Positions 5,639 through 55,060 of a stretch of 64,000 nt of DNA are shown piece by piece. A model generated the notes under the pieces. That model made no database searches, was not told the origin of the DNA, and saw nothing but the letters and a program-made list of their open reading frames with translations. Origin of the DNA: Escherichia coli (lineage in GTDB: Bacteria; Pseudomonadota; Gammaproteobacteria; Enterobacterales; Enterobacteriaceae). Numbering within the stretch: position 1 is the stretch's first letter; the number at the start of each line of letters is the position of its first letter. The position numbers and the translations under genes were made by a program. Location: NCBI RefSeq assembly GCF_046105845.1, contig NZ_CP151004.1; one strand, 5' to 3'.

Positions 5639-6253
5639 TTATTCTTCAATCGCTAACAATTGCAATGAACCACGGCTAAAATCCGCCAGCTTTGCGGAAA
5701 ATTCAGCCACTTTCGCCGCCGGAAGCGCCACCCGCAGCAGAACGAATGCCTGATAATCACTGTTGATAATTTTGCCGTCACACTGCCCCAGCAACGCTTC
5801 AATGCCGGTTAACTGACTATATTCACATTGCAAAGTATATTCGGTTAATGGCGTCTTGCGTTGGGTCGTTAGCTGGCGCAGCGCCTGATTCACTCCGCCG
5901 CCATACGCTTTCACTAACCCACCGGTACCAAGCAATATGCCGCCGTAGTAGCGCACCACCACAGCGGTAATTTCCCCGACGCCGCTGCCCATTAGTTGGG
6001 CGAGCATCGGTTTACCGGCCGTTCCCGCCGGTTCCCCGTCGTCAGAGAAACCGAGCTGTTGAGAATCATCCGGCGCACCCGCCACCCACGCCACGCAATG
6101 GTGGCGGGCATCGGGGTGTTCTGCCCGCACCGATTCAACAAACGCTTTCGCCGCCTCAACGCCATCGGTATGCGCCAACATCGTTATGAAGCGGCTCTTT
6201 TTGATCTCTTCAACGACCGTGACTGGTGCCGCAGGAATTAACCAGCTTTCCAT
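5639..6253 (-). CDS. yigZ: IMPACT-family protein YigZ
   Basis: Translation [22 protein letters not shown]... recognised; start placed at second Met of the track ORF to give 204 aa; start overlaps pepQ stop (ATGA). Confidence 0.88.
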   Translation of the reverse strand: MESWLIPAAPVTVVEEIKKSRFITMLAHTDGVEAAKAFVESVRAEHPDARHHCVAWVAGAPDDSQQLGFSDDGEPAGTAGKPMLAQLMGSGVGEITAVVVRYYGGILLGTGGLVKAYGGGVNQALRQLTTQRKTPLTEYTLQCEYSQLTGIEALLGQCDGKIINSDYQAFVLLRVALPAAKVAEFSAKLADFSRGSLQLLAIEE

Positions 6254-7584
6254 CACGCCAGTTTCAGATCCCGGGTCATGTTTTCCACGTTGTTTTCGTG
6301 GATCACCACGTTGTCTTCGATACGAATGCCGCCGAACGGTTTCAGTGCTTCAATTTTCTGCCAGTTGAAGTGCTTGCTGAACTGCCCTTCACGCCACGGT
6401 GCCAGCAGCGATTCAATGAAGTAAATACCCGGTTCGATGGTTAACACCATGCCCGGCTGGAGAATACGGGTGCAGCGCAGGTACGGATATTTTGCCGGTG
6501 CCGCGAGGTGCGTACCGCTATCATCTTGCATAAAGCCAGCTACGTCATGCACCTGCAGGCCCAGCGGATGACCGATACCGTGCGGCATAAACGGTCCGGT
6601 GAGATCGTTTTCGACCATCGCTTCTTCACTCATATCGGTGATGATTTGATGTTTACGCAGCAATTTGGCGATGCGCTGATGGAACTGGATGTGGTAATCC
6701 ACATAGCTGACGCCTGCTTTCATGGTGGCGATCAGCGCCAGTTGTTCATCATTTACGTCTTTCACCAGCTGTGCGTAGTCGTTATCGCTTTTTGCCGACC
6801 AGGTACGGGTCAGGTCAGCCGCATAGCCGTTATATTCGGCCCCGGCATCCAGCAGGAAGCTGCGCATCTCTTCCGGTGCCTGATGGTCCAGTTTGGTGTA
6901 ATGCAACACCGCAGCGTGTTCGTTAAGCGCCACAATGTTGCTGTAAGGTACGTCGGTATCACGATGACCGGTCGCGGTCAGATAGGCAATGTTGATATCG
7001 AACTCGCTCATGCCAGAACGGAACGCTTCTTCTGCCGCGCGATGACCGTTGACCGCCATTTTCTGCGCTTCACGCATACAGGCCAGTTCGTACTCGGTTT
7101 TGAAGGAGCGATAGTAATGCAGGTAGTCGATCACCCCTTTCGGGTTGATATTGCTGGCCTCAATACCCAGTTGCAGCGCACGTTCCGGCACCGGACCGAT
7201 ATAACCGATATTGCCGCGCGCAGCAGTCAACAGACTACCAATGCCATCGGCTTTCGGCAGCGCGATCACTTCCACGTCTTCAGTCCAGAAAGAGGTCGGC
7301 AGCGGTTCGACGTTGTGCCAGTAATCAACCGGCAGATAGAACCACAGTTTCGGCTTGTTCACGCCATCCACCAGCAGCCAGCAGTTTGGCACCTGAGTTA
7401 CCGGCACCCACGCTTTGAATTGCGGGTTCACTTTAAACGGATAGGGATGATCGTCGAGAAAAACGTTGAACAGTTCGCCGGAGTGAATAAGTAACGCATC
7501 CAGCTTGAAGCGCGCCAGCGCATCGCGAGTCCGTTCTTGTAAGGTAGCTATATGATTTTTATAGAGTGAGGCCAGTGATTCCAT
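6253..7584 (-). CDS. pepQ: Xaa-Pro dipeptidase (prolidase)
   Basis: 443-aa ORF recognised as PepQ (M24 metallopeptidase); length matches reference. Confidence 0.93.
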
Positions 7585-34366: not shown

Positions 34367-35257
34367 ATGGATGCAAAACAAACGCGGCAGGGCGTATTAC
34401 TCGCTCTTGCCGCTTATTTTATTTGGGGTATTGCGCCAGCGTACTTCAAGCTGATTTACTACGTGCCCGCCGATGAGATCCTGACGCATCGCGTGATCTG
34501 GTCGTTTTTCTTTATGGTGGTGCTGATGAGCATTTGCCGCCAGTGGTCCTATTTAAAAACGCTGATTCAGACGCCACAGAAAATTTTTATGCTGGCAGTC
34601 TCTGCCGTGCTGATTGGTGGCAACTGGCTACTGTTTATCTGGGCGGTGAACAATCACCATATGCTGGAAGCGAGCCTTGGTTACTTTATTAACCCGCTGG
34701 TGAACATTGTGCTGGGGATGATTTTCCTCGGCGAGCGATTCCGCCGGATGCAATGGCTGGCGGTGATTCTGGCAATATGTGGCGTGTTGGTTCAGTTGTG
34801 GACTTTTGGTTCACTGCCGATTATCGCGCTGGGGCTGGCGTTTAGTTTTGCCTTCTACGGCCTGGTACGCAAGAAGATTGCTGTTGAAGCGCAAACCGGC
34901 ATGTTAATCGAAACTATGTGGTTGCTGCCCGTGGCGGCGATTTACCTGTTTGCTATTGCCGACAGCTCAACCAGCCATATGGGGCAAAACCCGATGTCAC
35001 TGAATTTACTGCTGATCGCCGCCGGGATTGTCACTACCGTACCGCTGTTGTGTTTTACTGCGGCTGCGACACGCCTGCGTCTCTCAACGTTAGGCTTTTT
35101 TCAGTACATTGGCCCGACGCTGATGTTCCTGCTGGCTGTGACGTTTTATGGTGAAAAACCGGGTGCCGATAAGATGGTGACCTTCGCCTTTATTTGGGTG
35201 GCGCTGGCAATTTTTGTGATGGATGCGATTTATACGCAGCGTAGAACGTCCAAATAA
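34367..35257 (+). CDS. rarD: DMT-family permease RarD
   Basis: 296-aa membrane ORF recognised as RarD. Confidence 0.92.
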   Translation: MDAKQTRQGVLLALAAYFIWGIAPAYFKLIYYVPADEILTHRVIWSFFFMVVLMSICRQWSYLKTLIQTPQKIFMLAVSAVLIGGNWLLFIWAVNNHHMLEASLGYFINPLVNIVLGMIFLGERFRRMQWLAVILAICGVLVQLWTFGSLPIIALGLAFSFAFYGLVRKKIAVEAQTGMLIETMWLLPVAAIYLFAIADSSTSHMGQNPMSLNLLLIAAGIVTTVPLLCFTAAATRLRLSTLGFFQYIGPTLMFLLAVTFYGEKPGADKMVTFAFIWVALAIFVMDAIYTQRRTSK

Positions 35258-35315
35258 AAAATAAATATATTCTGAAAAAATATGCCGACTCTTGCATGAG
35301 AGTGGGCATATTGCC

Positions 35316-35693
35316 ATGCTGACAGGAGACTCACATAAGAAAGGCAGAATTTCCAGACGTCGTTGTATATTTTCATTTGCTTTAATAAATTTCATTTTTG
35401 CCTTTCTTATTATCTTTTTTAACGATGGGGACGCAGGTTTTCTTGTTATTGTCTCTACCAACGCACTCCATTATCTCGTCATCAACATAAATTGCCAACG
35501 ACTCCGTGATAGTGGTTTCATATATATAAAAACTTATGTTTTTGGTACATTAGCAGTATATATCATCTCTATCATCACAATGATAGCCGAACATTTTGAT
35601 TGTTCAGGCAATGGTTCGATGATTTTTTTGATTTGTTATTTTTCCACTTTCAGTATGCTAATGCTTGCACCTACTGATTCATCAAAACAATAG
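35316..35693 (+). CDS. yigG: small inner membrane protein YigG
   Basis: AT-rich ORF encoding a hydrophobic protein ([35 protein letters not shown]...); first ATG used because the track start at 35292 is a TTG. Start uncertain. Confidence 0.65.
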
Positions 35694-35706
35694 TTATGGA
35701 GTATTT

Positions 35707-36087
35707 ATGAGTAAGGAATATATGAACGATGGTTCATTAAGTGAAAAATGGAAATACCGATTTAATTTTTATGATCAACATGGCTTTCCTGGATTCTGGG
35801 GGGCAACACCAGAATATAAAGCAGCATTTAAAACATTAAAAGTAAGACAACGATTAACTATTCAAATGAATTTCATTGCTTTCTTCTGTTCCTGGATCTA
35901 TTTATTTGTTCTGGGATTATGGAAAAAAGCAATTATAGTTCTATTACTTGGCATTCTATCTCTATTTGTTGGTGCACTAATTGGCGTTAACATTCTGGGA
36001 ATTGCCGTAGCAGCCTATGTTGCTGTTAACACGAACAAATGGTTTTATGAGAAAGAGGTAAAAGGGTTAAATACCTGGAGCCTTTGA
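35707..36087 (+). CDS. yigF: small inner membrane protein YigF
   Basis: ATG with GGAG ribosome-binding site about 11 nt upstream; 126-aa hydrophobic protein MSKEYMNDGSLSEKWKYRFNFYDQHGFPGFWG... recognised as YigF. Confidence 0.75.
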   Translation: MSKEYMNDGSLSEKWKYRFNFYDQHGFPGFWGATPEYKAAFKTLKVRQRLTIQMNFIAFFCSWIYLFVLGLWKKAIIVLLLGILSLFVGALIGVNILGIAVAAYVAVNTNKWFYEKEVKGLNTWSL

Positions 36088-36093
36088 ATAACA

Positions 36094-36129
36094 GGTGGCT
36101 TAGCCAGGCTAAGCCACCGCCTTCTTTTT
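36094..36129 (+). terminator. hairpin terminator between convergent yigF and corA
   Basis: Stem-loop GGTGGCTTAGCCAGGCTAAGCCACC followed by GCCTTCTTTTT on the + strand; overlaps the corA stop codon. Confidence 0.5.
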
Positions 36130-37078
36130 ACAGCCAGTTCTTGCGCTTAAAGTACAGATACGGTGCCAGGCCCGCGAGGATCATAAAGATAATCGCGCCA
36201 GGGTAGCCGAAACTCCACTTCAGTTCCGGCATAAACTCAAAGTTCATCCCGTAGCTGGAAGCAACCAGCGTTGGCGGCAGGAACACGACGGATACCACCG
36301 AGAAGATTTTGATGATGCGGTTCTGCTCGATGTTGATAAAGCCCATCGCCGCCTGCATCAGGAAGTTCACCTTCTGGAACAGAGATTCGTTATGCGGCAG
36401 CAGGGATTCGATATCTCGCAGGATTTCACGCGCCTGCTCCAGCTGCCCGCCCGGTAAACGCGCCTTACGCACCAGGAAGTTGAGCGCACGCTGGGTATCC
36501 ATCAGACACAGGCGAACTTTCCAGCCGATATCTTCCAGTTCCGCCAGCGTGGAGAGCGCCTCGTCGTACTCATCGCCCTGATGCCCTTCCATAATTACCC
36601 GGCTCAACTGCTCCAGGTCGCTGTAGATATTTTCAATTTCATCTGCCAACTGTTCGATTTTGGTTTCGAACAGATCCAGCAGCAGCTCGTAGGCGTTACC
36701 GTCCACCATTGACTGGCTACGGGCACGCATACGATACAGACGGAATGCAGGCAGTTCACGCTCACGCAGAGTAAACAGACGACCATCACGGATGGTAAAT
36801 GCCACAGTGGAGTTACCGGCGTGATCTTCCGCATCTTCAAAGAAGAAGAAGGAGTGAATATGCAGGCCGTCATCGTCTTCAAAGAAACGTGCCGATGCTT
36901 CGATGTCTTCCAGTTCCGGGCGGGTTGCCAGGCTCTGACCAAGTTCAGATTGTACGCGCAGTCGCTCGTCGTCGTCCGGTTCGACAAGATCAATCCATAC
37001 TGCATTTACAAGGGGTTGTGACTCTTCGACTTCCAGCCGGGTCAGTCGGTTATTTTCCAGTTGAAATGCGCTCAGCAT
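36128..37078 (-). CDS. corA: magnesium/cobalt/nickel transporter CorA
   Basis: Translation [31 protein letters not shown]... ending ...[40 protein letters not shown] (316 aa) recognised as CorA, including GMN motif. Confidence 0.94.
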
Positions 37079-37447
37079 GACCGGGACTCCCAATGCTTAA
37101 AATATCGGACAGTTCGGTGGGCACACAGAAACAAATTGGGTTTCAGACCATTAAACAGCCTGACTCAGCGCGACGGGAAAAATTGAGGTCGCTGACAACC
37201 GCTAAGGCTATCAGCAAAAAGGGATAGCCTTAGGAGTTGATCCTGGATGACAGGATAGTGAGCCAGTATCTACTGGGTGTGTCCAAGGCGAATGTCCTCT
37301 TAGAGTGATCGTGCGCGCATGTTACGCCAGCAAAATTTTGCCGTCAACACGCAACAGAACACCACAGAACAATAGTTGAACTTCGCGCTTTTTGGTACTC
37401 GTCAAGGTCGCTAACAGGATAAAAAAATCCCACATCCAGGACCTATA

Positions 37448-38212
37448 ATGGCGCATCGGCTACTCATTGGTAAAGGAATGATCACCTTGAATCTCAAACG
37501 GATTTTTCTCACCCTCACCTTACTTCCCTTATTTGCTGTTGCCGCTGATGATTGCGCACTCTCAGATCCGGCGCTGACCGTACAGGCGTATACCGTTAAT
37601 CCTCAAACAGAGCGGGTGAAAATGTACTGGCAAAAAGCCAATGGCGAAGCGTGGGGAACGTTACATGCTCTGCTGGCGGATATTAATAGTCAGGGTCAGG
37701 TGCAGATGGCAATGAACGGCGGCATCTATGATGAAAGCTATGCGCCGCTCGGTTTGTACATCGAAAACGGTCAGCAGAAGGTGGCGTTAAATCTCGCTTC
37801 AGGTGAAGGGAATTTCTTTATTCGTCCTGGCGGCGTGTTTTATGTCGCGGGAGATAAAGTCGGCATCGTTCGTCTGGATGCCTTTAAAACCAGTAAAGAG
37901 ATTCAGTTTGCGGTGCAGTCAGGGCCAATGTTATTAGAAAACGGCGTAATTAATCCGCGTATTCATCCCAACGTCGCCTCACGTAAAATTCGTAACGGTG
38001 TTGGGATTAATAAACAAGGGAACGCCGTGTTTTTGTTGAGCCAGCAGGCGACAAATTTTTATGATTTTGCCTGTTATGCCAAAGCGAAACTGAACGTTGA
38101 GCAGTTGCTTTATCTTGATGGCACAATTTCACATATTTATATGAAAGGCGGGGCAATCCCGTGGCAACGCTATCCTTTTGTCACCATGATTTCCGTCGAG
38201 CGGAAAGGTTAA
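37448..38212 (+). CDS. yigE: DUF2233-family (phosphodiester glycosidase-like) protein YigE, predicted exported
   Basis: 254-aa ORF divergent from corA, with signal-peptide-like N-terminus; recognised as YigE. Domain assignment from memory. Confidence 0.8.
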   Translation: MAHRLLIGKGMITLNLKRIFLTLTLLPLFAVAADDCALSDPALTVQAYTVNPQTERVKMYWQKANGEAWGTLHALLADINSQGQVQMAMNGGIYDESYAPLGLYIENGQQKVALNLASGEGNFFIRPGGVFYVAGDKVGIVRLDAFKTSKEIQFAVQSGPMLLENGVINPRIHPNVASRKIRNGVGINKQGNAVFLLSQQATNFYDFACYAKAKLNVEQLLYLDGTISHIYMKGGAIPWQRYPFVTMISVERKG

Positions 38213-38294
38213 GCATTATACACTCGAGGAGGCCAGACAAACTGGGACTGGCTACACAGCTGGAAAATCATCAGATAAATGAAGGGAAACAAAA

Positions 38295-39197
38295 ATGAAA
38301 AAAACGCTCGCAACGTTATTTTTATTAACGTGTCTGGGATCATCATCCGCCTATGCGGATAACGCTTTGATTTTACAAACTGATTTTAGCCTGAAAGATG
38401 GTGCCGTCTCGGCGATGAAAGGGGTCGCATTCGGCGTTGACCATAATCTTAAAATCTTTGATTTAACACACGAAATTCCACCGTATAACATCTGGGAAGG
38501 CGCTTATCGCCTGTATCAGACTGCCAGTTACTGGCCGCAAGGTTCGGTGTTTGTTAGCGTGGTCGATCCGGGCGTAGGCACTGACCGTAAATCGGTAGTG
38601 CTGAAAACCAAAAACGGTCAGTACTTCGTTTCACCAGATAACGGTACGCTCACTTTGGTGGCACAAACTCTGGGTATTGATAGCGTCCGGGAAATCGACG
38701 AAAAAGCTAACCGCCTGAAAGGTTCTGAAAAGTCATATACCTTCCACGGTCGTGACGTGTATGCCTACACCGGTGCGCGTCTGGCTTCCGGGGCGATTAC
38801 GTTCGAACAGGTGGGGCCAGAGCTTCCTGCAAAAGTTGTCGAACTTTCTTATCAGAAAGCAAAAGCAACAAAAGGTGAAGTGAAGGGCAATATCCCGATT
38901 CTCGATATTCAGTACGGCAACGTCTGGAGCAATATCAGCGACGAGTTGCTGAATCAGGCAGGAATCAAACTCAACGACACGTTGTGTGTGACCATTTCCG
39001 AAGGTTCCCAGCAAAAATACGCAGGGAAAATGCCGTATGTCGCAAGTTTCGGCGATGTGCCGGAAGGCCAGCCGATGGTGTATCTGAACAGCTTATTGAA
39101 TGTTTCCGTGGCGCTGAATATGGATAATTTCGCGCAGAAACATCAGGTTGCATCTGGTGCTGACTGGAATATTGATGTGAAGAAGTGCGCTAAGTAA
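38295..39197 (+). CDS. SAM hydroxide adenosyltransferase family protein (DUF62; fluorinase/chlorinase-like fold) with N-terminal signal peptide
   Basis: 300-aa ORF with GAAGGGA ribosome-binding site 8 nt upstream of ATG. Signal peptide MKKTLATLFLLTCLGSSSAYA|DN, then family motifs LILQTDFSLKDGAVSAMKGV and FHGRDVYAY. Not part of the K-12 gene order as I recall it. Confidence 0.75.
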   Translation: MKKTLATLFLLTCLGSSSAYADNALILQTDFSLKDGAVSAMKGVAFGVDHNLKIFDLTHEIPPYNIWEGAYRLYQTASYWPQGSVFVSVVDPGVGTDRKSVVLKTKNGQYFVSPDNGTLTLVAQTLGIDSVREIDEKANRLKGSEKSYTFHGRDVYAYTGARLASGAITFEQVGPELPAKVVELSYQKAKATKGEVKGNIPILDIQYGNVWSNISDELLNQAGIKLNDTLCVTISEGSQQKYAGKMPYVASFGDVPEGQPMVYLNSLLNVSVALNMDNFAQKHQVASGADWNIDVKKCAK

Positions 39198-39206
39198 GGG
39201 GCTGAT

Positions 39207-39237
39207 GCGGAATGCGGTGTGGCGCACCGCATTCCGC
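39207..39237. other. perfect 13-bp inverted repeat (stem-loop) between convergent DUF62 gene and uvrD
   Basis: GCGGAATGCGGTG-tggcg-CACCGCATTCCGC; no flanking T-run on either strand. Confidence 0.6.
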
Positions 39238-39241
39238 AACG

Positions 39242-41404
39242 TCACACCGTCTCCAACCGGGCGTAAGCCGCCACCAGCCATTTAATACCCTGGCCCTGGA
39301 ACGCCACCTGCAAACGGCTATGCTCACCGCTGCCTTCCATATTGACGATGGTGCCTTCACCAAACTTAGCGTGGCGTACGCGCTGGCCGAGCTTGTAGCT
39401 GCTGTCGTTCTCGACCATCGGCGTACCCATCCGTTGATGGCTGACCGGGCGGCTTACCGTGGCGCGCAGGCGCACCTCTTCCACACACTCTTCCGGCAGC
39501 TCGCCGATAAAGCGCGACGGGCGATGGTAAACCTCTTTGCCATACAAACGGCGAGTTTCCGCGTAGGTCAGCGTCAGTTTCTGCATCGCGCGGGTTACGC
39601 CAACGTAGGCCAGACGGCGTTCTTCTTCCAGACGTCCGCCTTCATCCAGCGACATCTGGCTTGGGAACATGCCTTCTTCCATACCAACGATAAACACCTG
39701 CGGGAACTCCAGCCCTTTCGCCGAGTGTAGCGTCATCAACTGCACCGCATCCTGCCAGGTATCCGCCTGCCCCTCGCCCGCTTCCAGTGCCGCATGGGAG
39801 AGGAACGCCTGCAGCGGCATTAAATCTTCGTCTTCTTCGTTGTAGCTGAACTGGCGCGTCGCCGTCACCAGTTCCTCTAAGTTTTCGATACGCGTCTGTC
39901 CTTTTTCGCCCTTCTCCTGCTCGTACATGGTGCGCAGGCCGGAGTCTTTAATGACCCGGTCAGTCTGTACATGCAGCGGCATATCGGCAGTTTCCTGCGC
40001 TAAGGCGTCGATCAGTTCCATAAACCGTTGCAAGGCACTGGCAGCACGTCCGGCGAGGGCTTTTTCCTGCAACAGTTCACGACATGCCTGCCAGAGTGTT
40101 AACTGACGATCGCGCGATGTCTGACGTACCACGTCCAGCGTCCGGTCACCAATACCCCGCGTTGGCGTATTCACCACGCGCTCAAAGGCCGCGTCGTCGT
40201 TGCGGTTGGCAATCAGGCGCAGATATGAGAGCGCGTCTTTGATTTCCTGACGTTCGAAGAAGCGCATCCCGCCGTAAATACGGTACGGCATACTCGCCTG
40301 CAACAGTGCTTCTTCCAGCACGCGCGACTGGGCGTTGCTGCGGTAGAGAATGGCGCACTCGGCGAGCGCCCCGCCGTTGTCCTGCCAGGTCTTGATACGG
40401 TTAACCACAAAACGCGCTTCGTCGAGTTCGTTAAAAGCGCAATAGAGGGAAATCGGCTCACCGTCCGCGCCATCGGTCCACAGTTTTTTACCCAGACGCC
40501 CGTTGTTGTTTTCAATCAGGGCGTTAGCGGCGCTCAGAATATTGCTGGTAGAGCGGTAGTTTTGCTCCAGACGAATAGTTTCGGCACCGGGGAAATCATT
40601 AAGGAAACGCTGAATATTCTCCACCTGCGCCCCGCGCCAGCCGTAGATTGACTGGTCGTCATCGCCAACGATCATCACTTTGCCGGTGTCGCCCGCCAGC
40701 AGGCGGATCCACGCGTACTGAATGTTGTTGGTATCCTGGAATTCGTCCACCAGGATGTTAGTAAAACGTTCGCGGTAGTGTTGCAGGATATGCGGCTTGT
40801 TAAGCCACAACTCGTGAGCACGTAGCAGCAGCTCGGCGAAGTCCACCAGGCCCGCGCGGTCACACGCTTCCTGATACGCCTGATACACCTTCTGCCAGGT
40901 CTGCTCCACCGGATTACCGTAGCTTTGAATATGATGTGGACGCAGGCCTTCATCTTTCTGGCTGTTGATGTACCACATTGCCTGGCGCGGCGGCCACTGC
41001 TTCTCGTCGAGGTTCATCGCCTTGATTAGGCGTTTGAGCAGGCGTAGCTGGTCCTCGCTGTCGAGGATCTGAAAATCCTGCGGCAGATTGGCGTCCATAT
41101 GGTGCGCACGCAGCAGACGGTGCGCCAGCCCGTGGAAGGTGCCGACCCACATGCCGCCCTGGCTGGTGCCCATCAGCTGCCCGATACGATGACGCATCTC
41201 CGCCGCCGCTTTGTTGGTAAACGTTACCGCCATAATCGAGTATGGCGAGCAGTTTTCCACGCTCATCAGCCAGGCGATACGATGCACCAATACGCGCGTC
41301 TTACCACTGCCCGCGCCCGCCAGCACCAGAAGGTTGCTGCGTGGCGCGGCCACCGCTTCGCGCTGTTTGTCATTAAGGCTGTCGAGCAGGTAAGAAACGT
41401 CCAT
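39242..41404 (-). CDS. uvrD: DNA helicase II (UvrD)
   Basis: Translation from MDVSYLLDSLNDKQREAVAAPRSNLLVLAGAGSGKTRVLVHRIAWL... (720 aa) recognised as UvrD; track ORF is over-extended upstream by 62 codons. Confidence 0.94.
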   Translation of the reverse strand: MDVSYLLDSLNDKQREAVAAPRSNLLVLAGAGSGKTRVLVHRIAWLMSVENCSPYSIMAVTFTNKAAAEMRHRIGQLMGTSQGGMWVGTFHGLAHRLLRAHHMDANLPQDFQILDSEDQLRLLKRLIKAMNLDEKQWPPRQAMWYINSQKDEGLRPHHIQSYGNPVEQTWQKVYQAYQEACDRAGLVDFAELLLRAHELWLNKPHILQHYRERFTNILVDEFQDTNNIQYAWIRLLAGDTGKVMIVGDDDQSIYGWRGAQVENIQRFLNDFPGAETIRLEQNYRSTSNILSAANALIENNNGRLGKKLWTDGADGEPISLYCAFNELDEARFVVNRIKTWQDNGGALAECAILYRSNAQSRVLEEALLQASMPYRIYGGMRFFERQEIKDALSYLRLIANRNDDAAFERVVNTPTRGIGDRTLDVVRQTSRDRQLTLWQACRELLQEKALAGRAASALQRFMELIDALAQETADMPLHVQTDRVIKDSGLRTMYEQEKGEKGQTRIENLEELVTATRQFSYNEEDEDLMPLQAFLSHAALEAGEGQADTWQDAVQLMTLHSAKGLEFPQVFIVGMEEGMFPSQMSLDEGGRLEEERRLAYVGVTRAMQKLTLTYAETRRLYGKEVYHRPSRFIGELPEECVEEVRLRATVSRPVSHQRMGTPMVENDSSYKLGQRVRHAKFGEGTIVNMEGSGEHSRLQVAFQGQGIKWLVAAYARLETV

Positions 41405-53404: not shown

Positions 53405-55060
53405 ATGGAATTTTCGTTTTCACCCAAACTTCTTGTTGTGGCTGTCGCCGCCGCTCTTCCACTCATGGCCAACGCAGCAGATACCCCGTCAACCGCCACC
53501 GCACGCAAAGGCTTTGCCGGATACGATCACCCAAACCAGTATCTGGTTAAACCGGCGACCACTATTGCCGACAACATGATGCCGGTGATGCAGCATCCTG
53601 CACAAGACAAAGAAACCCAGCAGAAGCTGGCAGAACTTGAGAAAAAAACCGGTAAGAAACCGAACGTGGTTGTTTTCTTGCTGGATGATGTGGGCTGGAT
53701 GGATGTTGGCTTTAACGGCGGCGGCGTGGCGGTGGGTAACCCTACACCAGATATCGACGCCGTTGCCAGCCAGGGGCTGATTTTAACTTCGGCGTATTCT
53801 CAACCGAGTTCTTCCCCAACCCGCGCCACGATTCTTACCGGGCAATACTCCATCCACCACGGCATTCTGATGCCGCCAATGTACGGGCAACCGGGCGGTC
53901 TGCAAGGGTTAACCACTCTGCCGCAGTTGCTGCACGATCAGGGCTACGTCACTCAGGCCATCGGGAAATGGCATATGGGGGAAAACAAAGAGTCGCAGCC
54001 GCAGAACGTTGGCTTTGATGATTTCCGCGGTTTTAACTCGGTATCCGATATGTATACCGAATGGCGTGATGTTCACGTCAACCCGGAAGTCGCCCTGAGC
54101 CCGGATCGTTCTGAATACATCCAAAAACTGCCGTTCAGCAAAGATGACGTTCATGCCGTGCGCGGCGGTGAACAGGAAGCCATTGCCGACATTACGCCGA
54201 AATATATGGAAGACCTGGATCAACGCTGGATGGAATATGGCGTTAAGTTCCTCGACAAGATGGCGAAGAGCGATAAGCCTTTCTTCCTCTACTACGGCAC
54301 TCGCGGCTGTCACTTCGATAACTACCCAAATGCGAAATATGCGGGTAGCTCTCCGGCGCGCACCTCTTACGGCGACTGCATGGTGGAGATGAACGATATC
54401 TTCGCCAATCTGTATAAAGCACTGGAGAAAAACGGTCAGCTTGATAACACGCTGATTGTGTTCACCTCTGATAACGGTCCGGAAGCCGAAGTTCCGCCGC
54501 ACGGTCGCACACCGTTCCGCGGTGCGAAAGGTTCTACATGGGAAGGCGGCGTTCGTGTGCCAACCTTCGTTTACTGGAAAGGCATGATCCAACCGCGTAA
54601 ATCTGACGGTATTGTCGATCTGGCGGATCTCTTCCCAACCGCGCTGGATCTGGCGGGGCATCCTGGAGCGAAAGTGGCGAATTTAGTGCCGAAAACCACC
54701 TTTATCGATGGTGTGGACCAGACATCCTTCTTCCTGGGAACAAATGGTCAGTCTAACCGTAAGGCCGAGCACTACTTCCTCAACGGCAAACTTTCTGCTG
54801 TGCGTATGGATGAGTTCAAGTATCACGTCCTGATCCAGCAACCGTACGCGTATACCCAGAGCGGGTATCAGGGTGGATTCACCGGTACAGTAATGCAAAC
54901 GGCGGGATCGTCGGTGTTTAACCTGTACACCGATCCGCAGGAAAGCGACTCCATCGGCGTGCGCCATATCCCAATGGGTGTACCGCTACAGACCGAAATG
55001 CATGCGTATATGGAGATCCTGAAAAAATATCCACCACGCGCGCAGATTAAATCTGATTAA
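53405..55060 (+). CDS. aslA: arylsulfatase-family sulfatase AslA
   Basis: 551-aa ORF with signal peptide and sulfatase signature ([19 protein letters not shown]-x-P-x-R type motif), recognised as AslA. Confidence 0.93.

Follow-up and report, generated by a model that had tools for sequence, protein, structure and literature searches.

The locus and its gene model

The window, a stretch of 64,000 nucleotides of Escherichia coli DNA, carries between yigE and uvrD a gene (38295-39197) whose product is labelled in RefSeq as 'SAM hydrolase/SAM-dependent halogenase family protein'. The locus comprises the following features.

37448 to 38212, + strand: yigE, the upstream co-directional neighbour (Pfam NAGPA phosphodiester glycosidase PF09992, E 2.6e-18; N-terminus …MITLNLKRIFLTLTLLPLFAVA/ADD)
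38213 to 39205 (approximate), + strand: presence/absence cassette between yigE and uvrD, delimited by alignment with a K-12-type genome
38283 to 38287, + strand: Shine-Dalgarno-like AGGGA, 7 nt 5' of ATG 38295, read from the sequence
38295 to 39197, + strand: complete ORF (300 aa plus stop, from the ORF listing) for the predicted precursor of an exported SAM hydroxide adenosyltransferase (DUF62) family protein, hereafter the SAM_HAT gene
39207 to 39237, no strand assigned: perfect 13-bp inverted repeat (GCGGAATGCGGTG-5 nt-CACCGCATTCCGC) between the stops of the SAM_HAT gene and the convergent uvrD

ATG 38295 is the only workable start of the SAM_HAT gene. It is the next start codon 3' of an in-frame TGA at 38280-38282, and the AGGGA motif ahead of it falls within the segment over which alignment with the Helicobacter pylori gene extends (window 38269-39203). 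Just two further in-frame starts are found between this ATG and the conserved domain, and both were rejected: TTG at codon 25 is without a Shine-Dalgarno sequence, and ATG at codon 41 would remove the invariant Asp30 together with the first beta-strand. The N-terminal sequence given in the preliminary description of this DNA matches the translation of bases 38295-38360 (MKKTLATLFLLTCLGSSSAYAD), and the mis-annotated start that it had named as one possible refutation of its reading is not supported, given the upstream stop and the single workable start.

The gene is accessory in E. coli. While all but one of the complete E. coli genomes (5425 of 5426) have yigE, the SAM_HAT gene is found in 2413 (44%), in one copy (median 1 in a DNA-level search), and yigE occurs with or without it alongside. 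To our knowledge it is the only family member in Escherichia, the search made here having been at the DNA level. In the alignment with the K-12-type genome, identity ends directly after the yigE stop and resumes near 39220; where the cassette would lie, K-12 instead shows ~146 bp of spacer that includes a REP-like element. In both E. coli and Shigella the gene serves as a presence/absence marker.

It had been suggested that yigE, correctly placed 82 bp upstream (its end is at 38212), and the SAM_HAT gene form a small periplasmic module. The near-universal presence of yigE as against 44% for the SAM_HAT gene, and the lack of adjacency in Helicobacter and other genera, speak against this proposal. 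A promoter and terminator scan of 37050-39450 gave counts that did not differ from those of shuffled sequences and nothing in the yigE spacer. With no terminator detected between them, the two genes may be co-transcribed in Escherichia, which would be a local arrangement. The inverted repeat at 39207-39237 is a possible shared transcript-end hairpin; it has no T-run, and the terminator scan made no call there. No conserved operon partner emerged from the H. pylori locus, three metagenomic loci or all-against-all neighbour clustering in 80 genome loci. The sole recurrent neighbour cluster in this clustering consisted of antisense ORFs overlapping the SAM_HAT gene itself, and no neighbour family common to the 38 genera was found. 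This absence of a conserved neighbour argues for a stand-alone function.

An N-terminal Sec signal peptide

The N-terminal part of the ORF divides into a signal peptide and the mature protein.

38295 to 38357, + strand: signal peptide codons 1-21 (MKKTLATLFLLTCLGSSSAYA), with n/h/c architecture and A-x-A; predicted signal peptidase I cut between Ala21 and Asp22
38358 to 39194, + strand: predicted mature enzyme, residues 22-300, from the domain matches and the AlphaFold2 model

By inspection and by a simple rule, the segment has the features of a substrate of Sec and signal peptidase I, namely a positively charged n-region (MKK), an uncharged h-region of ~10-15 residues (TLATLFLLTCLG) and a c-region (SSSAYA, followed by DN) with small residues, here Ala, at -3 and -1. 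The N-terminal 21-25 residues are an appendage to the fold, since residue 26 is where the Pfam SAM_HAT_N match starts, and order in the AlphaFold2 model does not set in before residue 24 (pLDDT ~50 for residues 1-20). When the 48 long ORFs of the window were screened with a crude signal-peptide rule, PldA, the 38295 protein and two polytopic membrane proteins were flagged and HemY was marked as transmembrane-like. No soluble cytoplasmic protein among these 48 ORFs was flagged, yet YigE and a 551-aa ORF at 53405 were missed, so that the rule is specific but not sensitive. YigE does begin with a signal-like segment, as stated in the preliminary description, although the rule passed over it. The signal segment of the 38295 protein is no chance feature.

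The signal peptide has been kept while its sequence diverged, as seen in Helicobacter (…SSVHA/DN, …SSVYA/DN), Aeromonas (…IAAA/NE) and other genera. Its dN/dS is 0.37 as compared to 0.044 for the mature part, which is under strong purifying selection; signal character was thus retained despite the faster change. Two other types of export signal were considered and rejected. A Tat signal peptide, with its S/T-R-R-x-F-L-K motif, does not fit the n-region MKK, which has no RR. A lipoprotein (signal peptidase II) reading of Cys13, which would call for a lipobox [LVI][ASTVI][GAS]C, is at odds with Thr at -1 in L-L-T-C and with the replacement of this residue by His in H. acinonychis and by Gln in H. 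pylori SA213A and its absence from Aeromonas; Cys13 is therefore not a lipobox cysteine.

Export signals across relatives

Of 80 relatives, drawn from 38 named genera, almost every one has a matching hydrophobic extension at its N-terminus (signal peptide or lipobox), a result which together with the n/h/c layout and the AxA motif bears out the classical signal peptide recognised earlier. Represented among these relatives are Proteobacteria, Bacteroidota, Verrucomicrobia, Synergistetes, Fusobacteria, Thermotogota and the monoderm Tissierellia. Among the nearest 130 representatives of 50%-identity clusters whose sequence takes in the N-terminus, the length ahead of Asp30 has a bimodal distribution. 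In 51 it does not exceed 20 residues, 74 possess an extended hydrophobic segment bearing a signal peptidase I or lipobox site, and five are ambiguous. True lipoboxes are present in some distant relatives. A single exported clade was rejected, as exported and cytoplasmic types are interleaved, with at least 10 switches, in a neighbour-joining tree that is rough (a distance method, deep branches). The types differ in cysteine content, with a median of one cysteine per domain in the exported type versus four in the cytoplasmic type (Mann-Whitney p = 2e-5).

The mature 38295 protein has exactly two cysteines.

38985 to 38987, + strand: codon of Cys231, proposed disulfide partner, in strand 229-236 of the AlphaFold2 model; co-occurs with Cys298
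39186 to 39188, + strand: codon of Cys298, proposed disulfide partner, after the last strand (288-297) of the AlphaFold2 model; co-occurs with Cys231

Across the relatives both cysteines are present in 34 and neither in 46, and one alone was never found, a pattern which suggests that the two form a disulfide. The pair is restricted essentially to one proteobacterial clade, and its perfect co-occurrence may therefore reflect few evolutionary events.

The only family member with localisation data is HP0709 of H. pylori (UniProt O25413), the orthologue of the 38295 protein. It has 300 aa encoded by 903 nt, is 90% identical at the amino-acid and 85% at the nucleotide level, and shares the layout of the signal peptide, the triad and the Cys pair. 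Its genomic setting is different, as it lies between HP0708 and homA and has no yigE. It goes by the names 'conserved hypothetical protein' and 'adenosyl-chloride synthase'. In the exoproteome of H. pylori 26695, its spectral counts were 0, 1, 1, 6 and 17 in the supernatant, 0, 1, 0, 1 and 0 in cytoplasm/periplasm, and 2, 1, 3, 5 and 3 in the membrane fraction (PMC4773364, Tables S2 and S4). Supernatant enrichment reached a log2 value of 5.1 at 48 h (Bonferroni p = 1.4e-5), and MudPIT counts of 3 and 9 vs 1 and 0 gave a log2 value of 4.5 (p = 0.010), for a protein that is of low abundance, significant at late time points only and outside the authors' 74 putative secreted proteins (PMC4773364). 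The OMV list that contains HP0709 also has ribosomal proteins. Human antibodies recognise HP0709, and a GWAS found in it an SNP associated with gastric cancer.

We consider export of the 38295 protein highly probable. Its location outside the cytoplasm is well supported by signal conservation across phyla, the co-varying Cys pair, cysteine depletion and the supernatant enrichment of HP0709. Residence in the cytoplasm, where the protein could reach the SAM pool of the cell itself, does not agree with the signal peptide, the Cys pair and the proteomics of the orthologue, all of which point outside the cytoplasm.

Fold, family and catalytic residues

Two short motifs of the mature protein carry the catalytic triad.

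38565 to 38588, + strand: codons 91-98 (DPGVGTDR) with triad residues Asp91 and Arg98, aligned to VVDYGVGTSRK of 2zbu; (nearly) invariant in relatives
38745 to 38756, + strand: codons 151-154 (HGRD) with triad residue His151, plus Asp154, aligned to FHGRD of 2zbu

The protein belongs to the SAM_HAT/DUF62 superfamily, both of whose domains it has in essentially full length. PF01887 SAM_HAT_N covers residues 26-174 (model 2-145 of 145, E 4.9e-53) and PF20257 SAM_HAT_C residues 198-291 (model 1-83 of 84, E 3.9e-18). The AlphaFold2 model has a pLDDT of 92, and Foldseek gave a TM(target) of 0.90 to the Thermotoga maritima DUF62 structure 2zbu; the fold also matches SalL and FlA, with TM about 0.8-0.9. 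Pfam and Foldseek thus confirm the SAM-utilising enzyme fold proposed at the outset.

D91, R98 and H151 align with D/R/H of 2zbu and with Y/T/Y of SalL, which on sequence grounds places the protein in the hydrolase subclass, as a His-Arg-Asp triad sets hydrolases apart from halogenases (PMC10491745). All three catalytic positions, whose conservation the preliminary description had wished to see checked by alignment, are present and conserved in relatives. Position 151 is His in 75 of the 80 genome relatives and Phe in the remaining five, all Synergistetes. The family-invariant residues D30, N116, D154 and N213 are also intact. When 51 relatives of the exported type were set against 33 of the cytoplasmic type, no position in the conserved core proved group-specific; only A280 separates them, and it lies outside known motifs. 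The 38295 protein is only a family-level relative of the NCBIfam (R)-SAM hydrolase equivalogs, scoring 131.5 bits against a cut-off of 350 for NF058624 and 116.9 against 470 for NF053629. Nor does it belong to the halogenases, in which a dehydrating halide pocket takes the place of the triad, as it has the triad and scores 83.9 bits with the fluorinase model TIGR04507 (cut-off 400).

Activity on a SAM-type sulfonium is fairly probable. The different substrate or non-catalytic binding role that had been put forward to reconcile fold and location finds no support in the intact triad and invariant residues or in the core positions compared, and the simplest reading would be that the same chemistry acts on extracellular SAM. 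The DUF62 enzymes characterised so far turn over slowly and favour the (R)-epimer, and one group questions whether hydrolysing SAM is what they do physiologically at all (PMC12120602).

A proposed model for SAM breakdown outside the cytoplasm

We propose that the SAM_HAT gene encodes a Sec-exported DUF62 enzyme that works outside the cytoplasm and scavenges external SAM, an explanation which, taken whole, has about an even chance of being right. It builds on the signal peptide, fold, triad, Cys pair and orthologue localisation, which come from the present analysis or from cited data. From these we infer that the precursor would cross the inner membrane via Sec and be cut by signal peptidase I after Ala21 (AYA/DN), and that the ~30-kDa mature protein would fold in the periplasm, with Cys231 and Cys298 oxidised to a disulfide. 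It would then assemble as a trimer like its relatives; DUF62 relatives are trimers with active sites at the subunit interfaces. The Asp91-Arg98-His151 triad would activate water for attack on C5' of SAM, or of its R-sulfonium epimer, taken from the environment, and adenosine and L-methionine would be released for uptake.

E. coli has no SAM import, and adenosine and methionine can both be imported; it is because the products but not SAM can be taken up that we propose the role of a scavenging hydrolase. In this it would resemble the 5'-nucleotidases and phosphatases of the periplasm. UshA 5'-nucleotidase, CpdB, AphA and AnsB are Sec-exported soluble enzymes that turn non-importable compounds into importable nucleosides or amino acids; the analogy is one of role only, as their folds and chemistry are unrelated. 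HP0709 would do likewise in H. pylori, which requires external methionine and purines, with part of it passing into the medium. That scavenging is what the enzyme does physiologically is plausible, although we place it somewhat below an even chance. The export signal and the large set of exported relatives make it probable that the enzyme degrades SAM outside the cytoplasm and does not serve to repair the SAM pool within the cell.

Alternative explanations

An exported enzyme could also act on another extracellular substrate, such as decarboxylated SAM, another adenosyl-sulfonium, microbial 5'-halo-5'-deoxyadenosines or an adenosyl-cofactor, and the SAM annotation would then be misleading. The compartment is wrong for the known role of the family, the scores are well under the (R)-SAM hydrolase equivalog thresholds, the exported proteins are just 30-35% identical to characterised enzymes, and even the substrate on which DUF62 enzymes act physiologically is in doubt (PMC12120602). 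However, the triad and all family-invariant residues are kept, no core position splits exported from cytoplasmic types, no special-pathway genes occur among the neighbours, and SN2 attack at C5' needs a good leaving group, which leaves mostly sulfonium or halide candidates (PMC10491745). Taken together, another substrate seems unlikely. The same conserved residues bear on the idea of a non-catalytic periplasmic binding or structural protein that merely keeps the fold. This idea from the preliminary description is in line with the very low turnover of the family's enzymes (PMC12120602), but D91, R98, H151, D30, N116, D154 and N213 are conserved under a dN/dS of 0.044, a water-activating triad would be needless for a binding-only role, and no ABC transporter genes are adjacent, which makes it very unlikely in our view.

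The presence of HP0709 in the culture supernatant rather raises the question of an action on other cells, be it production of the immunomodulator adenosine or depletion of extracellular SAM, directed at the host or at competitors. Recognition of HP0709 by human antibodies, its gastric-cancer-associated GWAS SNP and the accessory nature of the gene in E. coli (44% of genomes) would fit such a function. Yet serology and GWAS are silent on function, no secretion-system or effector-type neighbours were found in the 80 genome loci, and exported-type relatives are abundant in host-free soil and water bacteria (Chitinophaga, Dyadobacter, Verrucomicrobia, Aeromonas); we regard this function as quite unlikely. 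The supernatant data also weigh on the opposite proposal, in which the protein is not exported, its hydrophobic N-terminus being either the result of a wrongly called start or a membrane anchor left uncleaved with the enzyme on the cytoplasmic side, where it would carry out routine (R)-SAM clean-up. Translation from the TTG at codon 25 might conceivably give a protein of the cytoplasmic type, but this codon has no Shine-Dalgarno sequence and an in-frame stop lies just 5' of the first ATG. In nearly every relative, across 38 genera and in many cases with a lipobox, the extension stays in frame and retains its character; the positive charge ahead of the h-region predicts an N-in, C-out topology; an oxidising compartment would suit both the cysteine statistics and the Cys pair; and HP0709 is depleted from the soluble cellular fraction. 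This proposal is largely refuted, and we hold it to be extremely improbable.

Relation to known enzymes and implications

The DUF62 enzymes Pyrococcus horikoshii PH0463, T. maritima 2zbu, Methanocaldococcus jannaschii MJ1651, Salinispora tropica StDUF62 and Sulfolobus acidocaldarius Saci0719 have the common SAM_HAT_N plus SAM_HAT_C fold and share with the 38295 protein the Asp-Arg-His water-activating triad and the family-invariant ligand-site residues. They have no signal peptide and were studied as cytoplasmic damage-control enzymes, whereas the 38295 protein has a predicted cleavable Sec signal and a conserved Cys pair and is 30-35% identical to them. The chlorinase SalL and the fluorinase FlA have the same fold and SN2 adenosyl-transfer logic as the 38295 protein but, as halogenases, lack the triad, SalL having Tyr, Thr and Tyr at the D91, R98 and H151 positions; the neighbour survey found no halometabolite pathway genes near the SAM_HAT gene. 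The phage T3-type SAMase also degrades SAM, with a fold unrelated to that of the 38295 protein; it is a cytoplasmic, anti-restriction SAM lyase that yields MTA and homoserine lactone (PMC7877911), and the SAM_HAT gene has no relationship to it.

The conflict noted earlier between an exported location and the cytoplasmic role of the family is genuine, as the sole proposed role is cytoplasmic (R)-SAM damage control. A literature search combining signal peptide, periplasm or secretion with DUF62 or SAM hydrolase returned no paper on exported DUF62 enzymes. Several 'DUF62' matches in the literature concerned DUF62xx families, e.g., DUF6260.

DUF62 enzymes are widespread and their physiological role is unsettled; clean-up of (R)-SAM inside the cell was proposed and is doubted by at least one recent paper (PMC12120602). 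This role cannot apply to a large set of DUF62 relatives, because they are exported. It is possible, though still doubtful, that Gram-negative and Gram-positive bacteria harbour a broad, previously undescribed set of DUF62 enzymes that work in the periplasm or the medium and whose true substrate or purpose is not (R)-SAM repair but the dedicated harvest of environmental SAM as a source of purine and methionine, or an action on other cells through production of adenosine or removal of SAM. Hydrolysis of external SAM would open a route to a non-importable compound as a source of adenosine and methionine, which would be relevant to gut and gastric colonisers. HP0709 has turned up in exoproteome, serology and GWAS studies without a functional explanation. 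If such a broad set of extracellular enzymes exists, HP0709 released by H. pylori would be a host-interaction factor, and the finding would bear on the purpose of DUF62 enzymes.

Locus and reading frame

The SAM_HAT gene, a 300-codon ORF on the plus strand, lies between yigE and the convergent uvrD, the gene order being rarD, yigG/yigF, corA, yigE, SAM_HAT, uvrD, yigB, xerC, dapF. RefSeq annotates the ORF as a member of the SAM hydroxide adenosyltransferase (DUF62) family; older records wrongly say 'acetolactate synthase'.

38295-39197, + strand, SAM_HAT ORF of 300 codons

Its N-terminus had been read exactly in the preliminary description (38295-38360, MKKTLATLFLLTCLGSSSAYAD). An in-frame TGA (38280-38282) precedes ATG 38295, the first start codon after that stop, and AGGGA lies upstream at a spacing of 7 nt. 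The only other in-frame starts ahead of the conserved domain are TTG at codon 25, which lacks a Shine-Dalgarno sequence, and ATG at codon 41, which would cost the invariant Asp30 and the first strand; both argue against a misannotated start with the true start further downstream. An out-of-frame ATG is located at 38279, and A-runs flank the SAM_HAT start (38279-38305, CAAAAATGAAAAAAACG). Through a length difference of 1 nt, the upstream ATG is in frame in some genomes, where it leads to annotated variants of 305-306 aa (MKGNK…), which may stem from sequencing error or homopolymer slippage and would have a longer n-region only. The stretch 35200-36100, which covers the two small membrane-protein-like ORFs yigG and yigF, is markedly AT-rich (GC 31-37% versus ~52%) and looks foreign by composition.

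Fold and enzyme class

The chemistry of the SAM_HAT family is already known, and the SAM-utilising fold noticed at the outset was recovered by Pfam over both domains (SAM_HAT_N, residues 26-174, E 5e-53; SAM_HAT_C, residues 198-291, E 4e-18). By sequence, the closest relatives of solved structure are the Thermotoga maritima DUF62 structure 2zbu (E 1e-43), the chlorinases ClA1 and SalL, PH0463, MJ1651 and fluorinases. An AlphaFold2 model built from a 53-sequence alignment (mean pLDDT 92) matched the SAM_HAT family alone in Foldseek, with TM(target) of 0.90 to 2zbu and 0.90-0.92 to SalL and ClA1. Since residues 1-20 have a pLDDT of ~50 and the first strand begins only with residue 24, residues 1-21/25 form an appendage to a SAM_HAT fold that is itself complete and ordinary.

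In pairwise alignment, D91 and R98 lie in VVDPGVGTDRK and H151 in TFHGRD, corresponding to VVDYGVGTSRK and TFHGRD in 2zbu. In SalL, the aligned residues are Tyr, Thr and Tyr. Because this triad, said to define DUF62 hydrolases versus halogenases (PMC10491745), matches 2zbu and differs from SalL, the protein is, judged by its residues, of the hydrolase and not the halogenase type. Scores did not reach the NCBIfam cut-offs for the (R)-SAM hydrolase equivalogs (131 bits versus 350, 117 versus 470) or for fluorinase (84 versus 400).

Evidence for a signal peptide

The signal peptide was judged from comparative and published evidence. A simple rule that asks for a charged n-region, a hydrophobic window of 8 residues and small residues at -3/-1 was run on the window's 48 long ORFs. 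It flagged the true exported protein PldA, the SAM_HAT protein and the polytopic inner-membrane proteins TrkH and RarD, marked HemY as transmembrane-like and flagged no soluble cytoplasmic protein. The rule is insensitive, missing YigE and a 551-aa ORF at 53405, the latter also with a signal-like N-terminus.

A HMMER search identified 8752 family members among 1.84 billion cluster representatives. In the 130 with an N-terminus out of the closest 150, the number of residues preceding invariant Asp30 is bimodally distributed: 51 have at most 20, typically 8-13, and start with M-x-x-x-[LIV]-V-F-Q-[ST]-D-F-G, 74 have at least 25, in which a hydrophobic core is combined with a lipobox or a site of the A-x-A type, and five are ambiguous. 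A scan of one genome per species yielded 80 relatives with 55-98% identity, including Aeromonas (~25 species), Edwardsiella, Thorsellia, Pasteurellaceae and Neisseriales at 65-76%, and Bacteroidota, Verrucomicrobia, Synergistetes, Fusobacteria, Thermotogota, Planctomycetota and monoderm Tissierellia at 55-66%. Nearly all 80 have an N-terminal signal peptide. Comparison of the window gene with its Helicobacter pylori orthologue gave a dN/dS of 0.37 over codons 1-21 and of 0.044 over the mature part, and the n/h/c architecture with the …[AV]-x-A|[DN]N site is retained. Functional signal peptides usually evolve in this way, fast in sequence but with their architecture kept. The signal peptide proposed in the preliminary description is upheld. 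A lipoprotein signal was rejected because Cys13 is unconserved (H. acinonychis has His, H. pylori SA213A has Gln and Aeromonas lacks the residue) and preceded by Thr, and a Tat signal because the N-terminus lacks a twin arginine. Some exported relatives (two Fervidobacterium MAGs, P0161, P0204 and P0239) have ~430-670 aa, with extra sequence C-terminal to the SAM_HAT domains.

Cysteine content points independently to an oxidising compartment. The domain holds fewer cysteines in exported-type than in cytoplasmic-type relatives (median 1 versus 4, Mann-Whitney p = 2e-5), and C231 and C298 are the only two in the mature E. coli protein. Across 80 full-length sequences (the window protein plus 79 genome relatives) these co-occur without exception: 34 have both (Escherichia, Helicobacter, Aeromonas, Pasteurellaceae, Neisseriales, Thorsellia, Edwardsiella and one Desulfobacterales MAG) and 46 have neither, most of the latter without any cysteine. 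The pattern looks like that of a structural disulfide, with the caveat that the pair is largely limited to one clade.

The Helicobacter pylori orthologue HP0709

The closest relatives beyond Escherichia/Shigella are, unexpectedly, those of H. pylori and H. acinonychis (~90% amino-acid identity). The H. pylori locus reads uvrA, omp15, rsmH, HP0708, the SAM_HAT orthologue, homA, an HD-domain gene and rpoN; locus order and a GWAS table identify the orthologue as HP0709 (O25413). Identity between the two genes (38269-39203 in the window, 6001-6903 in the H. pylori locus) is ~90% for protein and 85% for DNA, the similarity being limited to the ORF and ~26 nt upstream (dS ~0.85). GC content of the gene is intermediate in both hosts (47.6% versus 52.5% for the window; 42.9% versus 38% for the H. 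pylori locus). Since the next relatives (Aeromonas, Edwardsiella, Pasteurellaceae) are gammaproteobacteria, sequence comparison suggests that the gene passed into the H. pylori lineage from an enterobacterial-type donor.

Snider et al. list HP0709 in supplementary tables on strain 26695 (PMC4773364; merged 1D LC-MS/MS, supernatant depleted of OMVs). Counts at 12, 24, 30, 36 and 48 h were 0, 1, 1, 6 and 17 in the supernatant, 0, 1, 0, 1 and 0 in soluble cytoplasm/periplasm and 2, 1, 3, 5 and 3 in membranes, with a log2 enrichment of 5.1 at 48 h (Bonferroni p = 1.4e-5). MudPIT gave 3 and 9 in the supernatant versus 1 and 0 (log2 4.5 at 36 h, p = 0.010). Typical cytoplasmic proteins, SecA and PdxJ among them, had negative enrichment (PMC4773364). 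As HP0709 is of low abundance and absent from the authors' 74 putative secreted proteins (PMC4773364), this enrichment is supportive rather than decisive for export. HP0709 is also present in an OMV proteome, an unspecific list that includes ribosomal proteins, and is recognised by human sera, with anti-HP0709 antibodies forming part of a serological panel. A bacterial GWAS found a gastric-cancer-associated non-synonymous SNP at nt 145 (Asp in 'safe', Asn in 'risk' strains), i.e., codon 49, which is Asp49 of the window protein (GVDHNL); in the model, this residue lies on the surface, in the loop that follows helix 37-48.

Relation to yigE

YigE (37448-38212) has a NAGPA/DUF2233 phosphodiester glycosidase domain (Pfam NAGPA) and, as previously noted, a signal-like N-terminus; with the start as annotated, the n-region is unusually long, and a start at Met11 (MITLNLKR…) would produce a textbook signal peptide. 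The reported 82-bp distance to the SAM_HAT gene is correct, as yigE ends at 38212. Read-through is possible, since no terminator-like hairpin or convincing promoter was found in this spacer. The proposed periplasmic module of the two genes, however, is not supported by their distribution: of 5426 complete E. coli genomes, 5425 have yigE and uvrD and 2413 the SAM_HAT gene.

38213-39205, presence/absence cassette directly after the yigE stop codon, relative to the K-12-type strain HST04

In K-12-type genomes, a ~146-bp spacer that contains a palindromic REP-like element separates yigE from uvrD and takes the place of this ~1-kb cassette. A perfect 13-bp inverted repeat with a 5-nt loop (39207-39237) sits exactly between the SAM_HAT and convergent uvrD stop codons; it has a T-run on neither strand, and its right arm overlaps sequence common to the K-12 spacer. 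The window protein is 99% identical to the Shigella version. HP0709 has different neighbours, clustering of all neighbouring ORFs in 80 loci revealed no neighbour family common across genera, and three metagenomic loci had no shared neighbours. The SAM_HAT gene behaves as a stand-alone unit.

Substrate, mechanism and alternatives

Export had been taken to imply a different substrate or a non-catalytic binding role. In 51 exported-type and 33 cytoplasmic-type full-length relatives, the strongly conserved positions are all common to both types; among them are D30, G43, D56, H59, VDPGVG with D91, R98, PDNG with N116, F150, G152-R153-D154 and N213. Most sequences of either type have H151, and A280 is the sole exported-group-specific position. 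Alignment of the catalytic residues showed D91 and R98 to be invariant in the 80 genome relatives and H151 to be replaced, by Phe, in five Synergistetes sequences alone. The mature part is under strong purifying selection, and exported and cytoplasmic forms interleave in a rough neighbour-joining tree with at least 10 switches, indicating that the signal was repeatedly gained or lost on an otherwise unchanged enzyme. We conclude that the protein is predicted to be catalytic with the standard pocket; a subtle specificity change is possible.

The precursor would be exported via Sec, cleaved after Ala21, folded oxidatively with a C231-C298 disulfide and then assembled like its relatives. SAM_HAT family members are trimers with interfacial active sites. 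Trimers are mentioned for DUF62 enzymes (PMC12120602). SAM or its (R)-epimer would reach the periplasm from outside, and triad-dependent attack of water on C5' would yield adenosine and L-methionine. E. coli is not known to take up SAM, although it can import nucleosides and methionine; H. pylori depends on methionine from outside and lives on purine salvage. With this, a scavenging role, parallel to periplasmic nucleotidases and asparaginase, would be coherent. Of this picture, the fold, the triad, the signal, the Cys pair and the localisation of the orthologue are shown, and the substrate, the disulfide, the cleavage site and the physiological role are inferred.

This scavenging of SAM competes with a different extracellular adenosyl substrate, which the shared conserved core does not favour, and with a role directed at host or competitor cells through adenosine production or SAM depletion, for which the supernatant enrichment and serum recognition of HP0709 might speak. 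A non-catalytic binder is poorly supported given the conserved triad. Also poorly supported is a protein that is not exported at all: it would fit the proposed cytoplasmic biology of the family, and conflicts with the conserved signal and the cysteine pattern.

The biology proposed for DUF62 enzymes is cytoplasmic (R)-SAM removal (bioRxiv 10.1101/2025.08.29.672840; PMC10491745), a role that is contested (PMC12120602). A literature search of incomplete coverage found no mention of signal peptides, periplasm or secretion for the family. We rate the SAM_HAT gene as representing an extracytoplasmic branch of SAM hydroxide adenosyltransferases. Its moderate interest lies in what it may say about the purpose of DUF62 enzymes, and it lends itself readily to testing.
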